Shown: positions 1 to 10,424 of the stretch, in pieces
Position numbering within the stretch: the stretch's first letter is position 1
Layout: each line of letters starts with the position of its first letter
IMG/VR virus record: IMGVR_UViG_2585427777_000028
Location: 1-19,959 of that record
Reading direction: 5' to 3' (one strand)
DNA length: 19,959 nt
Origin: a virus
Taxonomy: Duplodnaviria; Heunggongvirae; Uroviricota; Caudoviricetes
Notes under the pieces: generated by a model
What the model was told of the DNA's origin: nothing
Seen by the model: only the letters and a program-made list of their open reading frames with translations
Database searches by the model: none
Translations under genes and position numbers: made by a program

Positions 1-330
1 TCACTTCAGCGGGTAGTCATCAAACTCACCATAACGCACTTCGTTGATGATGTACGTGATCACCAAAAATATCGCATCCGGACTAGTTCCATCTTCATGC
101 GCAGGCATATGTTCATGCCTACCTGTCTGCAAACCAGTAATAAGCCATTACAGGGTGATAGTGATGCATCAACTACGTTAAGCGCAGAGAAATGATGCAG
201 TGGTGGGCGGATTGGCTTGATGAAAAGGTGGAGTGATCCACCTTAACCACTATCGAAGATCACAAAGCCTTGCAATCCAGTGCAAAGCTTTGTGTGTCTC
301 AGTTTTGTTTCATCGGTAATTATGTGTTCG

Positions 331-618
331 CTACGATGCAAGAATCCATACCAATAAGCATCCGATAATTGGGAAAGAAAAATCCATCAGGCTTGCCACA
401 TCCCAAGCGCGCGGATCAAAACCGCCCCACCACGGCATGTTAATCCGCTTGCCATGACCAAACATTTCAATCCAGCGATATTCTGCCTGGGTGTGTTCAC
501 GAGCAATGAAGAACGTACAACCGGCTATCGCACCGTAAGCCCAGTTTCCGGTAAAAATACCACCCAGTACCTGTGCGACCACAGCGCAAAGTGCGTGATG
601 AATTGGGGTTTTATCCAT
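331..618 (-). CDS. small hydrophobic (probable inner-membrane) protein, unknown function
   Basis: 95 aa ORF with two hydrophobic segments. Its ATG sits directly after the tailspike stop (TAGATG on the - strand), suggesting translational coupling. No family recognised. Confidence 0.45.
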   Translation of the reverse strand: MDKTPIHHALCAVVAQVLGGIFTGNWAYGAIAGCTFFIAREHTQAEYRWIEMFGHGKRINMPWWGGFDPRAWDVASLMDFSFPIIGCLLVWILAS

Positions 619-3213
619 CTACTCTATCTCTTTTGCTTTTTTAATTATCAATTCAAGCTCTGTTAAACGAGACTCAATGCGTTCACACCTTCTTCGCTGG
701 AATGCAGCCTCCAACCACAAACATTCATCTGGACGCAATCCCCAACGCTCACCAGCATGTACAACCAGTTCCGTGTCACCAGTATCGTATTCTTCAAAGT
801 ATTCGTGAACGATGTCTTCTCCTTCAGGGGATTTAGCTATAAATGACACCTTGCGCTGTGCCATTACAGGTTGGTACTCATCATCCCATTTATCATGACA
901 TAGCAAGCCAAATCTTGTTCCATCTATCCCCTTTGCAAGAAACGCATCTCTTACCTGCTGTGCAATTGCTCCGAAATGCCAACGAGCAGTATCCGAACCT
1001 TTAGCCTTAATATCGGACAACCACTGGTAAACGATAATATTTACGTCACCCCATGCGTCAAGAATTGCATCCTGATCCACCTCCATGATTTCTGAAAGTT
1101 GCTCTACTGTCAGTGGCTTTGTTTTCAATGTCTGGTCTGAAGTATTTATTGCCCCATTAGTTGCATATACTTGCGTCCACCGTTTAGATGATATCCCACA
1201 TGATGACGTATTATCTTTATTAGCACTTATATAGCCATTAACCTCCGCTGACTGACCGATATACAAATATGAAGATGTTGATAAGGGAGATTTAAATATC
1301 CATTGAGCATTGGTAAAGTCATAAATACCGGTATCACCTTTTTCACTAACATGAAAAGTTACATTCCGTAACGTATTCTTTGCATCATAACGGGCGGCTT
1401 GTGTTGTTGCCCTCGAAACAGTGAATCCTTTGTCATCAAGGTTTGCCTGCTCTATGACTTCACCACCAGGCATAATTTTACCAAGGCTTAACAAACCAGA
1501 GTTAGTGACAATATCATGGGTTGAATCAATGATAATACCAGGCTGATTTCTTGAGGTTGTTTTTACATGCATTACCTGTTGTGGCATTAATGTGTAAAAT
1601 GTAGTTTCTCGCCCACTATCACCATCTGGTATGCCATTTGTATTCCCCATTACAAGGTCATACCCACCTGCAATCATACGGAAAAACATTGCTTCTGGTT
1701 CATATGTAAGATTGCTAACATCTGGCGTTCCGGTATCATTTGGATCTGCTATTTCATAGGCTCTTCCTGCACCTGCCTGTATTTGCTGCACCCCAAGATA
1801 AACACCATCAAGTGTGTACTGATGCAAATATTTTCTGGTTGAAGAATATGCAGATCCAGCCTGACAAAAATAAATAGCAGTACCGTCACACGCAACTGTT
1901 TGCATATCCCTCACAAAATCGGCAATTTCAAATTCAAAAGTTGCTTCATTACGATAATCGTAATTGTACGCCTGCGGGTTAATAAATTTGCTGGTATCAA
2001 ATACTTTTACATAATAGCGAATTTGATCTGGTGTTGATGGGCTCTCACCAGGGCCAACATAACGTTTTGCTGTAGTAATCAGCCATCGACTCATAGGGTC
2101 GGTGCATAAAACATTTACCTGATTCTCGTAACCATCTTCCCATATGAGAAAAAACTCTGGTTCAATTTCACCACCATCAGTAGGGGTGAATCTGGTGATA
2201 TACTTTGCGCGATCCTCTCCTTTAGCTGTGCCAGCTAACCCCCATATCTGTAACTGGCCTCTTGTGTTACGAAAACCAACGCGCCCTATGGTTAAACCAA
2301 GACATTGATGTCCTAATTCTCTACTACCTTTAGTCTCCCAAAGAGGAGTTAACTCTTCATTCCCAAACCAATTATAAGCAACAACTTTATTAACTTCGTC
2401 ACCAGAACTAACGCTGCCACTCACATTTACCAAGCAATAAAGAACACTGTCATAATAATCAAGAACAGCACCCTGTATGACAGTATTTTTAATTGTTGCC
2501 AGTCGCAACCCTGACTTAACATGATTAGGAGTAGAAGGTCTGAAACCTGTATACATCCCCTTTTTTATAGTTTGTATTCTTTTTTCAGTAAAATCAGCAT
2601 CTGGCAGTAATCGATTCTCTGTGCGAAAATAGCCATTTATATACTTATTTCCATCAAAAACTTGATCTGTTATATATGTATTACCCCTTAGATCAACAAT
2701 CCTTCCTGTGATTTGTTTTTCTAACTCTTGAAAAGATAATGTGTCATCGGTGATGCCATCACCTTTTGCTCCCCATCCGCGAGGGTCAGCGTCATCACGC
2801 CACCGAGACATCTGCAATTCATGATATTTTTTAGCACCTTCCGGGTCTTCTAATTGTTGTCTTAATTGGTCAGGATCGTACTTAAGCACATTCGGAAAAT
2901 AGAACTGCTGCGTACCATATGCATCGTAAACAGCCATAGAATGGCCTTGCACGGTTACGAACTTGGCAATCTGTCCGTTATATACCGGATATCCAGCAGC
3001 GTTAATGATGATTGGTTGCGAAACAGGAACGTGAGAGCCATCTTCATTCTCTACATAAACCTGAATCTGGTTTTCAGGATTTACCGGGTCAGTGTCAATT
3101 TTACCGATATAAATTTTTCCATTTGCTACGGTTTTAAAAGAGCTAGCCATTGTGAAGAGTTGCGATGGCATACCTATCACAACATTTGGGGTTATATCAG
3201 GCATATTAGTCAT
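619..3213 (-). CDS. tailspike protein: P22 gp9-like N-terminal head-binding domain, pectate-lyase-like beta-helix, possible C-terminal intramolecular chaperone domain
   Basis: N-terminus [12 protein letters not shown]...[37 protein letters not shown]...[13 protein letters not shown]...VLKYDPDQ matches my recollection of the P22 tailspike head-binding domain. [12 protein letters not shown] is the usual opening of a pectate-lyase-3 beta-helix. The C-terminal region contains SDQTLK, resembling the Ser-Lys auto-cleavage motif of peptidase S74 chaperone domains. The track ORF runs to 3357 from a TTG; I take the ATG at 3211-3213 as the start (the ATG three codons further in is also possible). Confidence 0.8.
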
Positions 3214-3540
3214 CCTGTTTGAAGATTTAGATATTGAAGAAAACGGAATGACTGCAGACAAAGATGCAATTGTTTTGAAAAATAATCTTCTATTCACTTT
3301 AAAACTATGCAACATGAACAAAACAATTATTTTACAACAAACAAGAATCTTGATCAACAGACATATGCTTTATGCGTTTAATGCGTCATTTAAAAATAAC
3401 AAGTACTACTTTTATTCCTATCGTCCATGATTTTCATTTTCAAATATTATTAAATAACAATTCCTATTTATAATATCTGTCATTTAATTTGCTCCAGATA
3501 CAAGGAATCGCCGCAGCATGGCTACGGTGAATTTTGGGCA

Positions 3541-3565
3541 TAAAAAAACCCAGCCGAAGCTGGGT
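3541..3565 (-). terminator. rho-independent terminator downstream of ant
   Basis: On the - strand: ACCCAGC-TTCG-GCTGGGT hairpin followed by a run of seven U, about 19 nt after the ant stop codon. Confidence 0.6.
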
Positions 3566-3583
3566 CGTTGCGTTGGTTATCTG

Positions 3584-4462
3584 TCAGTAGTTATGAACTG
3601 AAGGAGGTAATTCTTTATTCTTAAGTCTCATCCATGCGGAAAGATTCGTTGGTCCGTCTGGCTCATTGATATCAACATCTCGTGTGTGGTTGATTAAAAC
3701 ATCTCTCGCCATATCGATAATACGGGAGAACTCATAACCGCAGTCATGACATCTGCCGGAATAGTTCGATTGAATTTGTTTTAGCGCCGGATACAGTTCG
3801 CGGAATAATGCCTGTGAGCGGTTGGCATAATCCCATAACCATACAAGGCTGTTTGCTTCTTTTGCAGAAAGCTCGTTGGTTTTCTTCTCTTGTTTGCCGA
3901 TGAACTCACCTTCAAGCACTACCCTGTGGATGTACTCTACAGCTTGCGGGATTTGTTCAATTGAAAGTTCATCAATGCTGTCAATACCAAAACGCTGATG
4001 AACCATATTGTATGCATCGTCATAGCGAAGTCCTTTCTTTCCTACCAGCATGTTTACTGCATCGCGTAGCGGTGTTCTTTCCTCAACAGTGGTTTTCTTT
4101 CCTTTAACATACTCGCCATGTTTGCGAATTGAAGGCAGAACTTCTGCTGTTACCCACTTGCGGAATTTGTGCGGGACTGAACCTTTATTGACTGCATCGC
4201 GGCAGCGCAGAACCAATGTATACATACCTGATTCGCTCACAATGCTTAGATTCTGCTCACCACCAAGGGTGTAACTTAAAGTTACTCCCTTTTCATCGTC
4301 ATCAAGTGCAGTAAGCGCCTTGCGTGAGTTAGTCAAAGCTAAAGCATCACAAACATCTTTAGCTACAAACCACGGCTCACCGCACTTGTTGATGACGCGG
4401 ATTTCACTGTCGCCGAATTTGAAGATGGTGAAATCGTTTTGTGCCTTTGCTATACTTTTCAT
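3584..4462 (-). CDS. ant: antirepressor Ant-like protein with BRO-N domain
   Basis: N-terminal [50 protein letters not shown] is a typical BRO-N motif. It lies downstream of arc on the same strand, as in P22 immI. Confidence 0.8.
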
Positions 4463-4913: not shown

Positions 4914-4968
4914 AAGATAGCAAAGTGAGTATATCTAGTCAAAATTTTTTTGCATACACTTTGCTATC
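4914..4968. promoter_or_regulatory. divergent Pant / Pmnt control region with a 12-bp inverted repeat pair
   Basis: On the - strand, TTGACT, 17 nt, TATCTT lies upstream of arc. GATAGCAAAGTG (4916-4927) and its exact reverse complement CACTTTGCTATC (4957-4968) flank the region. Confidence 0.45.
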
Positions 4969-4991
4969 AAATTGAATACCAAAGGTGTGAT

Positions 4992-5240
4992 ATGGCAAAG
5001 GGTGTGTCAATTTCTCCAACTACGGTAAGAATCCCTGAATCTTTACGCGAGGCTCTTGCTGTCAGAGCATCAAAAAATGGTCGCTCTGTTAACTCCGAGA
5101 TCGTCATGATTTTGCAAGCCGCGATTGATGAAGATAGGTCGCCAAAGTCAGTTGAGTCATTTGCTCAGCAAGAAGCTGACAAATTCAAAGAGGCGCTGCT
5201 TGAGACGCTAAAGACCATGTATGCTAAGGATGAAAAATAA
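4992..5240 (+). CDS. mnt: Mnt-like ribbon-helix-helix repressor
   Basis: RIPESLREALAVRASKNGRSVNSEIVMILQAAIDE resembles P22 Mnt (the NGRS(V/M)NSE core is shared with Arc). ATG at 4992 is preceded by AAAGGTG. Divergent from arc. Confidence 0.8.
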   Translation: MAKGVSISPTTVRIPESLREALAVRASKNGRSVNSEIVMILQAAIDEDRSPKSVESFAQQEADKFKEALLETLKTMYAKDEK

Positions 5241-5776
5241 TGCTGCACACAATTCATTTCTTATGCCCCGTTAACACTGCCACTGTTGGGCAACTTCAGA
5301 ACCACTGTCTCACCGCATTATCTCAAGGCGCAACTGAATTAAATATCCATATATCAAGTCAGGGAGGGGAAACTGCCGCTGGCTTTACTGCGTATAACTT
5401 TCTTAAGTCACTCCCTGTTACCGTTAGAACTCACAACATAAGCAATGTTGAATCCATAGCTAATATCGTTTTCCTGGCTGGCTCAGAACGTTTCGCAAAC
5501 CCATTATCAAGATTCCTGTTACATCCTCTATTATGGTGCTTTGCCTCCCCAGCCGCCGACCATGCCAGATTGAGAGAGTACGGGAAATGCCTCGATAACG
5601 ATCTTGATCGCTTCGTTGAGACGTTCAATATCGACATCGGAACCCATATTAGGTGGGCATCCCTGATAGCAGACTCGACCATTTTGGATGCTAACAAGGC
5701 TCTTGAGCATGGCATAATTAATTCCATAAAAACTGCAAGGCTGGCATCCAATCAGGCAAACTGGTGGGTTGTTTGA
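5240..5776 (+). CDS. ClpP-fold (S14-like) serine peptidase
   Basis: IHISSQGGETAAGFTAYNFLKSLPVTVRTHNISNVESIANIVFLAGSERFANPLSRFLLHPL follows the ClpP core pattern (INSPGG...AG..IYD......V.T...GQAASMGAFLL.AG..GKR...PNSR.MIHQPL), with candidate Ser and His at the expected positions. Start overlaps the mnt stop (TAATG). Confidence 0.65.
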   Translation: MLHTIHFLCPVNTATVGQLQNHCLTALSQGATELNIHISSQGGETAAGFTAYNFLKSLPVTVRTHNISNVESIANIVFLAGSERFANPLSRFLLHPLLWCFASPAADHARLREYGKCLDNDLDRFVETFNIDIGTHIRWASLIADSTILDANKALEHGIINSIKTARLASNQANWWVV

Positions 5777-6124: not shown

Positions 6125-6474
6125 ATATGTCGCTCGCAGAACTCAACAAGCCTGCTCATTAAGTAGCAGTAAGTCTCGTTGGCTCTTCCTGGTTCAACAT
6201 CAACACCGACCCTTGAGCAGATATCGAATGCCATGTGAGCGCACTCATGGGCAATAGTAGATAGTTTGCCATTGAACACGCCTATCACATGCAAAACACC
6301 ATTCTCGCTGCTCATTGTATGAGACGCTCCGTTGGCATCCGAGTCCTGCACGTCCACACCAAGTTTTTGATGCAGGCGTTGCCATTCTGGAAAGTCTCTA
6401 CAAAACACAATTGTACCGCTCTCAAAGAGCGGAACGAGCATCTTTGGTACGTTTCCAATGTTAACTTTTTTCAT
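6109..6474 (-). CDS. small HExxH metallopeptidase-like protein (possibly ImmA/IrrE-type)
   Basis: Motif STIAHECAHMAF contains HExxH. Start taken at ATG (track M5) preceded by CAGGAT; the track start at 6486 is a GTG. Confidence 0.5.
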   Translation of the reverse strand: MKKVNIGNVPKMLVPLFESGTIVFCRDFPEWQRLHQKLGVDVQDSDANGASHTMSSENGVLHVIGVFNGKLSTIAHECAHMAFDICSRVGVDVEPGRANETYCYLMSRLVEFCERHIKKPE

Positions 6475-6504
6475 GGTATCCTGCACAAAACTAAGGAGGT
6501 TGGT

Positions 6505-6954
6505 GTGAGTGAAAAATTATCAGTTGAGATTTACAGGGATGCCAAAAAATTGATTAAAAAGGCATTGCTGATTTCCCTATCTTTGTTAGCCATTGCCATT
6601 GTTTATTTTGTGGCAGACAAAATCTATACAGAACAAAAAAATAGCAAAAAAAGCGCTGAACTGATTATGCGAGCCGAAAATGCTGTCAAGGGTACCCAAC
6701 CTAAGGTGTTCAATAGAACAGACCTTGGCGAAAGTCACTCTATTTCCATTTGGTTTATTAATGATTCAGATAAGCACATTCTTGTAGAAAAAAACGGTGA
6801 AAAATCGTTGTTTTCTACAGGAGGATATGTATCCGGTGATATCCATGCATATCATCAGGCCGGAAAGGCATGCGAAACCCTGTCTTTTTCTATGGATTCA
6901 AGTTCTGTGATATCCGCTTCTTGCGATTTTGATGATTATTACCTTAAAAAATAG
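6505..6954 (+). CDS. membrane-anchored protein of unknown function, at the position P22 uses for sieA
   Basis: GTG start 5 nt after AAGGAGG. N-terminal hydrophobic helix (ALLISLSLLAIAIVYFV) then a soluble domain. AT-rich. Divergent from the HExxH gene. The upstream 72 codons of the track ORF overlap that gene and are rejected. Confidence 0.5.
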   Translation: MSEKLSVEIYRDAKKLIKKALLISLSLLAIAIVYFVADKIYTEQKNSKKSAELIMRAENAVKGTQPKVFNRTDLGESHSISIWFINDSDKHILVEKNGEKSLFSTGGYVSGDIHAYHQAGKACETLSFSMDSSSVISASCDFDDYYLKK

Positions 6955-9140: not shown

Positions 9141-9997
9141 TAATCACCCCATAAAGACGAGAAACCGGACTTATTGCTGTCGCTTCCTGATTTTCGCTCA
9201 CTAACATATGTGTCATAACCTGATGAACTATATCCCATTGATTCAGCCTCCCTTGCTGCAACCTTTTGAAATACAGAATATTGCGATCGGATTTCAGATA
9301 ACTGTTTTCTGACGACCTCTTCAGGCTGTGTTATATCGAGTTTCGCGATCAGGTTTTCCAGTTTTTGGCCTTCAGCATTGGAGAGGCTACCCATACCTCG
9401 CATAGTCTGCACGTTCTGGACAAACGCACCCGACTTTAATTCTTCTATCGCATTACGGTTTGCAAGCCCTTCAGCACTTGTGAAGCCATCTATATTTCTT
9501 CCTTCGAAGCGACCGATACCTTCAAGCTCCTTCTTACCAAGCAAAGAATCTATTTTCTCTATCCCTCGCTCACCAGTAATCAACGCATTGTTGTAATTAT
9601 TGTTGCCATCAAGCCATCTCTTAGCCTGAGACATTCTGGCTGACGTTGCAGCTTTACCGGTTAGAGGATCAATTCCCGTCGCTGCTATCTGTGAGTTAAG
9701 AGACAAAACATCCATATCCTGAAGTTGTCCTGCTCTTTCAAGGGCCGCCTGTGACTGCTTAAACACATACTTGTCGTGATTCAGTCTTGCCATTTGAGCC
9801 TTATAGGAAAGATCCTGCCCCCTAATAGCCCTCGCATTCGTCATGTCATTATTGCGAATGGTTTCGTTAATTCTTTGCTGCTCCTGCTGGCGACCAACCA
9901 TCTTGTCCTGAACAGCAAACGCCTTTTCTGGCCCAAGCGCACCGAGAGACATCGTAGTCAGCATGTGTGATAGTTGTTCATCTGACCAGATAGCCAT
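9140..9997 (-). CDS. putative virion DNA-ejection protein
   Basis: 285 aa; its stop overlaps the start of the 722-aa gene (TAATG). Gln-rich with coiled-coil-like stretches. The true start may be an internal Met because the upstream fragment overlaps it. Confidence 0.45.
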
Positions 9998-10230
9998 TGC
10001 TGACCAAGCGTTGGTGCGATTGTTGCTAACTGATTACCGGTTGCAGTGGAACCCAATCCACCTGTTGCTTCCGCTGCCGCCAGACTCTGATAGCGAGCCT
10101 GACCAGCAAGATCTTTGTACTGCTGAGAGTTGTAATACTGGTTAAGTGCCTGACCTTGCCCTTCCAGAGACGATAAGTTCTCGAGGCTGCCGACATACTT
10201 ATCAGCCAGAGGAGTATTCGATCTGTTTTC
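9958..10230 (-). pseudogene. 5'-truncated gene fragment (C-terminal ~90 codons of a virion gene) abutting the O remnant
   Basis: A - strand frame with no start codon reads ...[83 protein letters not shown]. It begins exactly where homology to O ends. Confidence 0.35.
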
Positions 10231-10424
10231 TTATTGAAGCCATATGTTTTCCGGACATAGGCCAGCATAACTTTCAACTGGCGAGCGGTTAAATCGGCAC
10301 TTGCGATAGCTTCCAGCAGCTCGTTAGCGAATCTGGTGTAACCATCATCGATATCAGCCACTCTTAGCTCCTGTTCGGCAAAGTTACCTCTGCCGAAGTT
10401 GAGTATTTTTGCTGTATTTGTCAT
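10026..10424 (-). pseudogene. O: truncated replication initiator O (N-terminal ~70 codons only)
   Basis: MTNTAKILNFGRGNFAEQELRVADIDDGYTRFANELLEAIASADLTARQLKVMLAYVRKTYGFNKKTDRI closely matches my recollection of the lambda O N-terminus. After about codon 70 the frame reads unrelated sequence to a stop. Confidence 0.7.

Follow-up and report, generated by a model that had tools for sequence, protein, structure and literature searches.

The minus-strand locus at positions 331-3213 of the window (the whole 20-kb stretch of phage DNA analysed here, 19,959 nt) probably combines a modular tailspike of the CUS-3 style with a separately mobile membrane-protein cassette, both working as outlined here. 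We propose that a head-binding N-terminus docks the tailspike trimer onto the tail, and that an endosialidase-type neck leads into a polysaccharide-recognising, perhaps cleaving, beta-propeller. A C-terminal S74 chaperone domain would assist folding of the trimeric stalk and then cut itself off at Ser689, with a 688-aa mature spike and a released 173-aa fragment as the predicted products. The membrane protein of 95 aa encoded next would most likely be an accessory ('moron'-type) envelope protein that targets some conserved component of the host, with superinfection exclusion as one example. Every feature that the initial annotation placed in this interval is present, although not always with the character it was given (Table 1).

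Table 1 Features of the tailspike locus, in window coordinates
Feature	Position	Strand	Details
Weak terminator-like hairpin (tentative)	221..242	-	GGTGGA-TCAC-TCCACC followed by TTTT, found by eye
Gene for 95-aa small hydrophobic protein	331..618	-	PHROG 1443 family; ATG abuts tailspike stop
Tailspike gene	619-3204	-	861 aa; coding 3204 to 622, stop codon TAG 621-619
S74 intramolecular chaperone/autoprotease domain, aa 689-861	622..1140	-	PF13884, PDB 3gw6
Beta-rich stalk, aa ~575-688	1141..1482	-	Model strands and position analogous to endosialidase stalk
Beta-propeller receptor-binding domain, aa ~190-574	1483..2637	-	Boundaries approximate
Linker and probable endosialidase 'N-terminal extension'-type neck, aa ~118-189	2638..2853	-	CUS-3 identity, sub-threshold PF12218
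P22/Sf6-type head-binding (tail-adaptor) domain, aa 1-117	2854..3204	-	PF09008, PDB 7sg7
Likely tailspike start codon	3204-3202	-	AGGA at 3216-3213, 8 nt upstream
Intrinsic terminator on 3' side of antirepressor gene	3547..3566	-	Scan: 8 stem pairs, then T-run

Upstream of the tailspike and on its strand come genes for Ant, Arc-family proteins, a gp20-like protein and a gp16-like DNA transfer protein. The tailspike gene follows ejection-protein genes and an immI (arc/mnt/ant) region, the arrangement of a P22-like prophage, and E. coli A3 and JEP4 have this same order. The antirepressor-side terminator is situated upstream of an AT-rich 379-nt spacer (GC 31.9%) that precedes the tailspike, and the hairpin at the other end, ~90 nt 3' of the 95-aa gene, was left uncalled by the consensus terminator scan. 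The prophage in the window seems to have lost its Q, lysis and head genes by deletion, which makes expression at the locus uncertain. Within the open frame around the tailspike (619..3357), the start was initially assigned to an ATG at 3213, which is in frame, but the likely start lies three codons further in. Because the ATG equivalent to 3204 is the PGAP start of the 98%-identical E. coli A3 gene (2586 nt), the Sf6 and P22 proteins align from the Met at 3204, and AGGA is suitably spaced from it, the tailspike most likely starts there and is 861 aa long.

The head-binding N-terminus of P22 gp9 type recognised in the initial annotation is well supported. Pfam identifies Head_binding (PF09008, E 1.1e-63) at aa 4-116 in the numbering of the 864-aa reading, the sequence is near-identical to aa 1-118 of Sf6 gp14 (PDB 7sg7, E 1e-63), and the matching structures 7sg7, 2vky, 2xc1 and 1lkt, P22 gp9 included, range from E 1e-63 to 2e-42. 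P22 gp9 and Sf6 gp14 are alike in head-binding domain (E 1e-63 to 1e-42), virion role and gene position, but unlike the protein described here they have parallel beta-helix receptor domains and no terminal S74 chaperone. Similarity to the CUS-3 endosialidase tailspike extends through the neck, with 74% identity over aa 1-197; PF12218 (End_N_terminal) reaches E 3e-37 in CUS-3 and, on the neck in the window, 24.3 bits, short of the 26.3-bit cut-off. This stretch also matches the tailspikes in PDB 9vvr and 28lx, and it contains a 12-residue motif with GDG..DDT (aa 144-155, window 2775-2740).

The middle of the tailspike had been annotated as a pectate-lyase-like beta-helix, a call that did not survive. 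Pfam beta-helix and pectate-lyase families gave zero matches to the tailspike even at E<=1, and the receptor domain carries neither PF12708 nor PF13229 as a parallel beta-helix would. An AlphaFold model of the central domain, based on a 59-sequence alignment, is a propeller with a pLDDT of 89.4, for which a full-length run with a 7-sequence alignment (pLDDT 42.8) was set aside. Three fold searches with the central-domain model matched propellers only; their 50-60 best matches include no beta-helix. Conserved positions in the domain include GHQ (298-300), ACDG (438-441) and YEPE (501-504).

The fold matches lean to five-bladed propellers, and Pfam detected no match in the tailspike to PF12217, PF12195 or PF12219, the set expected of the endosialidase six-bladed propeller with beta-barrel and stalk, which argues that the substrate is almost certainly not polysialic acid. 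The propeller would recognise, and perhaps cleave, a surface polysaccharide. The structurally closest protein is the receptor-binding protein of Staphylococcus phage phi11, Gp45 (PDB 5efv), to which those of 80alpha, NF5 and P68 are related. The predicted monomer reproduces the propeller 'platform' on a stem of the Gp45 type, a stem that would be trimeric here. Sequence identity to this group is 12-15%; its members belong to the baseplates of siphoviruses and podoviruses that infect Gram-positive hosts, and their entries have no P22-type head-binding adaptor and showed no S74 relationship. Gp45 of phi11 binds teichoic-acid GlcNAc and is not known to be an enzyme.

Between propeller and chaperone, the monomer model contains short beta-strands (pLDDT 76-95) that would form a stalk, presumed to be trimeric, at the position of the endosialidase stalk. 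The C-terminal region was initially likened to S74 auto-cleaving chaperones from its SDQTLK motif, and both profile and structure matches bear this out: Peptidase_S74 (PF13884) is found there by Pfam at E 4.4e-10, aa 653-854 (864 numbering) align with the chaperone of the K1F endosialidase (PDB 3gw6, E 1e-32), and 9vvr, 3gud, 7y5s and 4uw8 match as well. SDQTLK occupies aa 689-694 (Ser689 codon 1140-1138, Lys694 codon 1125-1123) and supplies, at the start of the domain, the catalytic Ser and Lys five residues apart (Ser-x4-Lys) that are characteristic of S74. In the alignment, S689 falls on the Ser that is replaced by Ala in 3gw6, and K694 on the Lys of that structure; a Ser/Lys catalytic dyad has been described for the endosialidase chaperone (PMC3742443). 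The K1F domain (MEROPS/Pfam Peptidase_S74) thus corresponds in full-domain alignment, Ser/Lys spacing and location after a stalk, but differs by insertions and deletions mid-domain, and cleavage of the tailspike in the window is a prediction from sequence. We infer cleavage, trimer geometry and enzymatic activity for this tailspike, with self-cleavage placed at Ser689 through a putative Ser689/Lys694 dyad.

The closest overall parallel is the tailspike of CUS-3, a P22-like K1 prophage with the siaK1 endosialidase (GenBank CP000711, citing PMID 16689790). The domain order is identical (Head_binding, a neck probably of End_N_terminal type, propeller, stalk, S74 chaperone), identity over the chaperone domain is 35%, and the genomic position, after ant and before the att/int region, matches. 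In contrast, propeller and stalk of CUS-3 have no detectable sequence homology to those in the window, and the gene downstream is neuO, not the 95-aa gene. Mosaicism of this kind recurs among seven related clusters, which keep propeller and S74 at 60-70% identity while their N-termini carry PF09008, PF18668, PF03906 or no recognised domain. The tailspike is accordingly chimeric, as first annotated, with its receptor module found behind three different N-terminal anchors. These comparisons indicate that neck, propeller, stalk and chaperone form one exchange unit, placed behind P22-type, T7-type and Vi-like anchors.

Conservation across many genomes indicates that the 95-aa ORF is a real gene. 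Its product matches the PHROG 1443 profile at E 9.8e-54 over positions 1-94 of 97, and homologous clusters number 554 with a single query and 1929 with a profile. It bears the conserved core of this family (REHTQAEYRWI...NMPWWGGFD), for which family alignments give the invariant form AREHTQAEYRWI...GKRxNMPWWGGFDxRxW. Hydropathy resolves two hydrophobic segments, an N-terminal stretch at ~aa 5-39 and a C-terminal helix at 76-95, on either side of a polar core (40-75), in agreement with the two-helix membrane protein of the initial annotation. The positive-inside rule places the conserved loop in the cytoplasm, in disagreement with the TMHMM topology in the phage 21 record (N-in/C-in). Of 5426 E. 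coli genomes, 1881 carry the gene, frequently more than once, and the suggested search of prophage tail loci did recover the family in P22-like, lambda-like and P2-like settings. Identity of 45-60% is kept across alpha-, beta-, gamma- and deltaproteobacteria and in chromosomes without phage genes; an Aeromonas copy between pirin and RIO1 kinase genes and a sphingomonad copy beside ligA are apparently non-phage. Pfam, NCBIfam and PADLOC searches and a profile search of the PDB returned no relatives, none of the 1929 clusters has a Pfam domain or a name, and a literature search by accession and name found nothing on the family. Phage 21 gp24, a 'putative membrane protein' (OL657228), belongs to the family with 82% identity and likewise ends a fibre gene cluster, but there the preceding genes encode a side tail fibre and a PHROG 1361 protein of 92 aa, and the gene has its own ribosome-binding site.

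In the window, the 95-aa ORF follows the tailspike stop without a gap (gag ata gag TAG ATG gat aaa). The initial annotation read this TAGATG as coupling of the two genes; they do adjoin, but such coupling is not conserved. Gaps of 34-240 nt separate tailspike and 95-aa gene in other P22-like loci, where a strong AAAGGAGG-type Shine-Dalgarno sequence is present and, in three of them, a terminator lies just upstream of the gene. When the locus was compared by blastn with JEP4, Gally, 611R6, PEC011, phage 21 and the Qin prophage of BL21, homology started within a few bases of the ATG, at ~90% nucleotide identity. GC content rises at the same point from ~44% to 49% (95-aa gene 49.3%, tailspike 39-44%). 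Lambda-type side fibres, a P2-like fibre-assembly gene and a GpJ-like tip protein are also followed by the gene, and sequence comparison thus marks it as a separate, mobile cassette. The cassette would lie at the boundary between the late operon and the attachment/integrase region. Since the recombination joint in this tailspike allele falls exactly at stop and start, re-initiation after the tailspike is the probable route of translation, and the protein would play no part in tailspike maturation. A scan for an internal promoter of the 95-aa gene gave eight sites against 10.5 expected by chance.

Neighbouring genes were surveyed with PHROGs on adjacent ORFs, in preference to a Pfam survey of the largest ORFs found upstream in 60 loci, which was swamped by flanking host genes; S74 near the 95-aa gene was sought with Pfam and an improved HMM. 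S74 was found upstream only in the locus type described here, Escherichia lambdoid prophages, 611R6 (as a remnant) and one Desulfovibrio MAG, and the proposition that the gene always follows S74 fibres was rejected as a general rule.

The slot between tailspike and integrase is used for lysogenic conversion elsewhere, by neuO in CUS-3, an O-acetylase in 611R6, and gtrABC of P22 and oac of Sf6 (PMC8787464). By analogy, a role in lysogenic conversion or exclusion, as initially suggested, would fit the slot of the 95-aa gene, though this is a guess. In contrast to those conversion genes, which are much larger and have no sequence relationship to it, the 95-aa protein does not vary with receptor specificity, and it belongs to none of the described conversion, exclusion or defence families (Gtr, Oac, PADLOC). 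As a tentative reading, more doubtful than likely, this undescribed family of small membrane proteins, with its 1929 clusters, may have been captured repeatedly from bacterial chromosomes by temperate podo-, sipho- and myoviruses, which would keep it last in their receptor-binding gene clusters, and may target a conserved part of the envelope so as to block superinfection or to remodel the surface independently of the receptor specificity of the phage. The Aeromonas and sphingomonad contexts argue for a housekeeping-type activity over a dedicated anti-phage role. Kapi1 'hyp24', a gene between tailspike and integrase that was tested experimentally for O-antigen conversion (PMC8787464), proved to be an unrelated ORF of 34 aa in the opposite orientation, and its negative conversion result is therefore not applicable to the 95-aa gene.

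The combination put forward initially, a depolymerase with a pectate-lyase-like right-handed beta-helix and a conversion gene matched to the receptor, is very improbable. GDG..DDT is typical of the N-terminal cap in PF12708 pectate-lyase-like tailspikes, and PF12708 does cover this motif in two other proteins, a further P22-like tailspike and the Desulfovibrio fibre; in the window, however, the motif falls within the neck, and both the Pfam result and the confident propeller model speak against a helix. The 95-aa gene does occupy a conversion-gene slot, yet its copies next to unrelated tailspikes and side fibres share ~90% identity and therefore do not co-vary with receptor specificity, and its product is without similarity to Gtr, Oac or Wzy families. 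Alternatively, the 95-aa protein could have a function connected with S74 fibres: anchored in the membrane, it might help or receive the chaperone fragment once this is released, or it might serve in assembly or quality control, with TAGATG setting the stoichiometry. An S74 fibre gene is indeed directly upstream in three unrelated settings, namely the locus in the window, with 14 close relatives, the Escherichia lambdoid prophages (S74 fibre proteins of 234-346 aa) and the Desulfovibrio MAG (a zero-base gap), and a residual S74 fibre 3' end accompanies the gene in 611R6. We nevertheless regard such a role as improbable, given that S74 is lacking by Pfam from five P22-like tailspikes that immediately precede the gene, from the side fibre of phage 21 and from the neighbours in phiHAP-1 and Comamonas, that ~55 of 70 genomic loci show no nearby S74, that the Aeromonas and sphingomonad copies have no fibre gene at all, and that the endosialidase chaperone, in the established view, needs no partner (PMC3742443).

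A holin-like or lysis-timing protein, or another membrane factor of the lytic cycle co-expressed with the tail genes, would account for the small size and two hydrophobic segments, for its invariable place last in the tail module, oriented as the late genes are, and for the frequent abutment or overlap with the upstream gene (0-15 nt or an ATGA overlap). A Phage_holin_8 match in one of 33 members (E 0.042) is not significant, and the protein falls in no holin family. Its 36-residue, near-invariant polar loop and the near absence of a charged C-terminal tail are unlike holins, identity persists across four proteobacterial classes and phage-free chromosomes, and P22-like and lambda-like phages such as Kapi1 have a complete lysis cassette elsewhere, all of which makes a lytic function improbable as well. 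An accessory envelope protein is the reading that we retain for the 95-aa gene.

If the modular reading of the tailspike is correct, the CUS-3 design of P22 anchor, propeller and self-cleaving chaperone would extend beyond the K1 endosialidases. The GDG..DDT motif alone is no proof of a beta-helix, which calls for caution in motif-based assignments. A rare and little-studied propeller module would move among P22-like, T7-like and Vi-like phages, which may be useful for host-range prediction and for the engineering of receptor-binding proteins. The strongly conserved small membrane protein, present in about one third of complete E. coli genomes, would be an inexpensive and clearly delimited target for a screen of prophage accessory genes.

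The tailspike is numbered here as an 861-residue protein starting at the ATG at 3204, since this codon is preceded by AGGA (3216-3213) 8 nt upstream, is equivalent to the PGAP start of the 98%-identical gene in E. coli strain A3, and encodes the Met at which alignments with the Sf6 and P22 tailspikes begin. The initial annotation had used the in-frame ATG at 3213, three codons upstream, but its ORFs, its two motifs (the 12-residue GDG..DDT at residues 144-155 and SDQTLK at residues 689-694) and the TAGATG junction are all present. At this junction (...gag ata gag TAG ATG gat aaa...) the second ORF begins with the very next base after the tailspike stop. Between the ant terminator and the tailspike lies a very AT-rich spacer of 379 nt (3205-3583; 31.9% GC), in which the tailspike frame reaches upstream to a TTG at 3357; this extension is most likely not translated.

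Coordinates of features in the window, in the 95-residue protein and in comparison loci.
Feature	Position	Strand	Remarks
Tailspike ORF	3204..622	minus	861 aa; long ORF ending at 619
95-codon ORF	618 to 331	minus	directly after tailspike stop
95-aa protein, hydrophobic N-terminal stretch	aa ~5-39
95-aa protein, polar core	aa 40-75		AREHTQAEYRWI...GKRxNMPWWGGFDxRxW; near-invariant across Escherichia, Sphingomonas and Desulfovibrio
95-aa protein, C-terminal hydrophobic helix	after aa 75
Arc/FitA-like ribbon-helix-helix gene	4950-5240	+	immI region; stop overlaps start of next gene
ClpP-like protease gene	5240-5776	+	178 aa; PF00574, E 2e-11
221-aa ORF after ClpP-like gene	6289-6954		without family match
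gp20-like ejection protein gene	9143-9997	minus	N-terminally truncated; profile positions 171-420 of 435
O-like replication-initiator fragment	10029-10424	minus	profile positions 1-76 of 232 only
PHROG 1361 ORF	L003 (phage 21) 4710-4988; L076 (BL21) 4000-4281; L006 5710-5988

Both ends of the tailspike proved to be as originally described. A P22 gp9-type head-binding N-terminus is supported by the Pfam family Head_binding (E 1.1e-63), and the first ~118 residues are near-identical to Sf6 gp14 (PDB 7sg7), with P22 gp9 as another close relative. The gene order upstream on the same strand is P22-like, comprising a gp16-like DNA-transfer protein, a gp20-like protein, Arc-family proteins and the Ant antirepressor. 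The C-terminus matches Peptidase_S74 (E 4.4e-10), and the chaperone domain of the K1F endosialidase (PDB 3gw6) aligns with the whole of the last ~200 residues (E 1e-32). The documented catalytic pair of S74 chaperone domains is a Ser/Lys dyad five residues apart (PMC3742443); in the 3gw6 alignment, Ser689 occupies the position mutated to Ala in the crystal construct and Lys694 that of its Lys. Self-cleavage would yield a 688-residue spike and 173 released residues.

The middle domain, proposed to be a pectate-lyase-like beta-helix, turns out to be a propeller instead. No beta-helix or pectate-lyase Pfam family matched the tailspike even at E<=1, and the sole additional Pfam match was an endosialidase 'N-terminal extension' slightly below the cut-off. 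An exhaustive HMMER search of residues 135-690 against 1.84 billion representatives recovered 175 relatives, ~60 of which span the greater part of the domain (24-41% identity). A full-length AlphaFold run with seven sequences was useless (pLDDT 42.8), whereas the model from a 59-sequence alignment reached a pLDDT of 89.4 and a pTM of 0.87. Its top Foldseek matches in the PDB were receptor-binding proteins of the Staphylococcus phages phi11, 80alpha, NF5 and P68 and the K1F and phi92 endosialidases (E 1e-11 to 1e-9), with WD40 proteins and sialidases ranking behind them; BFVD returned propeller-type fibres and endosialidases, and no list contained a beta-helix structure. The GDG..DDT motif, read initially as part of the beta-helix, sits in the neck, in the stretch corresponding to End_N_terminal of CUS-3, a P22-like K1 prophage with an endosialidase tailspike. 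Residues Q244, H299, Q300, Q435, D440, E502 and E504 are conserved across the 59 relatives and are candidates for a binding or active site.

Residues 1-197, including the neck that represents the CUS-3 End_N_terminal domain, are 74% identical to that endosialidase. The tailspike as a whole thus joins the known CUS-3-type architecture, with the same order of head-binding domain, neck, propeller, stalk and S74 chaperone. The propeller differs from that of CUS-3, since the endosialidase propeller, barrel and stalk families give no match here. The propeller is rare: 5.8 billion proteins yielded just seven clusters sharing it at >=60% identity. S74 is present in six of the seven, whereas their N-termini are Head_binding, Tail_spike_N, Phage_T7_tail or none recognised. 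Neck, propeller, stalk and chaperone are thus exchanged as one unit grafted onto different anchors. DNA-level similarity with other P22-like phages is confined to the head-binding part, and 14 of 5426 complete E. coli genomes carry the entire locus at ~98% identity, annotated 'phage tailspike protein | hypothetical protein'.

The 95-residue protein belongs to PHROG 1443, of unknown function (E 1e-53). Its related clusters (554 with a single query, 1929 with a profile) include none with a Pfam domain or informative name, and searches of NCBIfam, PADLOC and the PDB returned zero relatives. The loop contains 5-6 Lys/Arg residues versus fewer than 1.2 at each end, which favours a cytoplasmic loop, unlike the TMHMM N-in/C-in topology recorded for the family member of phage 21.

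Comparison of loci shows that this gene is a separate, independent cassette, very common and wholly uncharacterised. In blastn, P22-like loci (including JEP4, Gally, 611R6 and PEC011) and lambda-like loci (phage 21 and the BL21 Qin prophage) match at ~90% identity, beginning no more than a few bases from its ATG; in the P22-like loci, homology extends ~155 nt downstream, toward the integrase. The tailspike has a GC content of 39-44%, and the value rises to 49% for the cassette. The proposed coupling of the two genes holds as adjacency in this locus, but other P22-like loci have gaps of 34-240 nt, a strong AAAGGAGG-type Shine-Dalgarno sequence before the small gene and preceding tailspikes that lack S74; three also have a rho-independent terminator directly upstream. 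The gene lies 3' of side tail fibre genes in lambda-like phages, of a fibre-assembly gene in the P2-like Halomonas phage phiHAP-1 and of a GpJ-like tip protein gene in Comamonas; tail and tail-fibre PHROGs predominate among 91 ORFs adjacent upstream. Chromosomal, non-phage settings are found in several Aeromonas species (polB, pirin, the homologue, then RIO1 and lipid A acyltransferase genes) and in sphingomonads, next to ligA. At a nucleotide identity of at least ~85%, the gene is present in 1881 of 5426 E. coli genomes (median two copies, maximum seven). Immediately upstream S74 ORFs are limited to this locus type, Escherichia lambdoid prophages, the 611R6 remnant and one Desulfovibrio MAG; the TAGATG coupling is therefore a trait of this recombinant and not of the family.

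Other loci carry further related arrangements. In 611R6 (L084 4345-4458), a terminator and a 38-residue ORF annotated 'tail fiber protein', near-identical to the 3' end of an S74 fibre gene in a lambda-like prophage (L007), precede the cassette; this ORF is a recombination scar of cassette movement from a siphovirus-type to a podovirus-type genome. The Desulfovibrio MAG (L067 3112-6207) reproduces the window's arrangement in a deltaproteobacterium, with a 935-residue fibre (pectate-lyase-type cap plus S74) followed at zero gap by a 96-residue family member. In Escherichia lambdoid prophages, the lambda-type side tail fibre gene is regularly separated from the S74 fibre protein or the cassette by a second small conserved ORF of ~92 residues (PHROG 1361, function unknown).

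The window appears to carry a defective prophage. After a cro-like gene and cII on the minus strand comes an O-like fragment running straight into the truncated gp20-like gene (9143-10424), and Q, lysis, terminase, portal and coat genes are absent from the 20-kb window. This implies that a ~20 kb deletion fused the early-right operon to the ejection genes. Unlike this prophage, E. coli A3 retains three intact ejection genes. It is therefore uncertain whether the source strain expresses the tailspike and the small gene. The Arc/FitA-like and ClpP-like pair, unusual cargo oriented opposite to the structural genes, is possibly a toxin-antitoxin-like or defence module. Downstream of the cassette, positions 176-314 and 1-175 are ~90% identical to a stretch running into the intS 3' end in argW-integrated P22-like prophages; the equivalent flank in E. 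coli E100341 is an annotated S24-peptidase pseudogene adjoining dacD, and in A3 the locus terminates beside ybhB/bioA, the lambda att region. These differing flanks indicate one right-end module at different integration sites.

Conversion genes are located between tailspike and att/int (PMC8787464), a slot occupied in CUS-3 by neuO and in 611R6 by an O-acetylase. The Kapi1 ORF hyp24, tested elsewhere for O-antigen conversion, was set aside, since it is unrelated and has no bearing on this gene. A role in S74-fibre maturation would fit the junction seen here, but is less likely given the tailspikes lacking S74 elsewhere; a role in lysis is also less likely. Indifference to the type of receptor-binding protein, together with the invariant loop, argues that the protein acts on a conserved host target instead of masking one specific receptor, and its relatives on chromosomes point to a membrane activity that is cell-autonomous. 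With low confidence, we favour a moron-type envelope or exclusion factor as the best guess.
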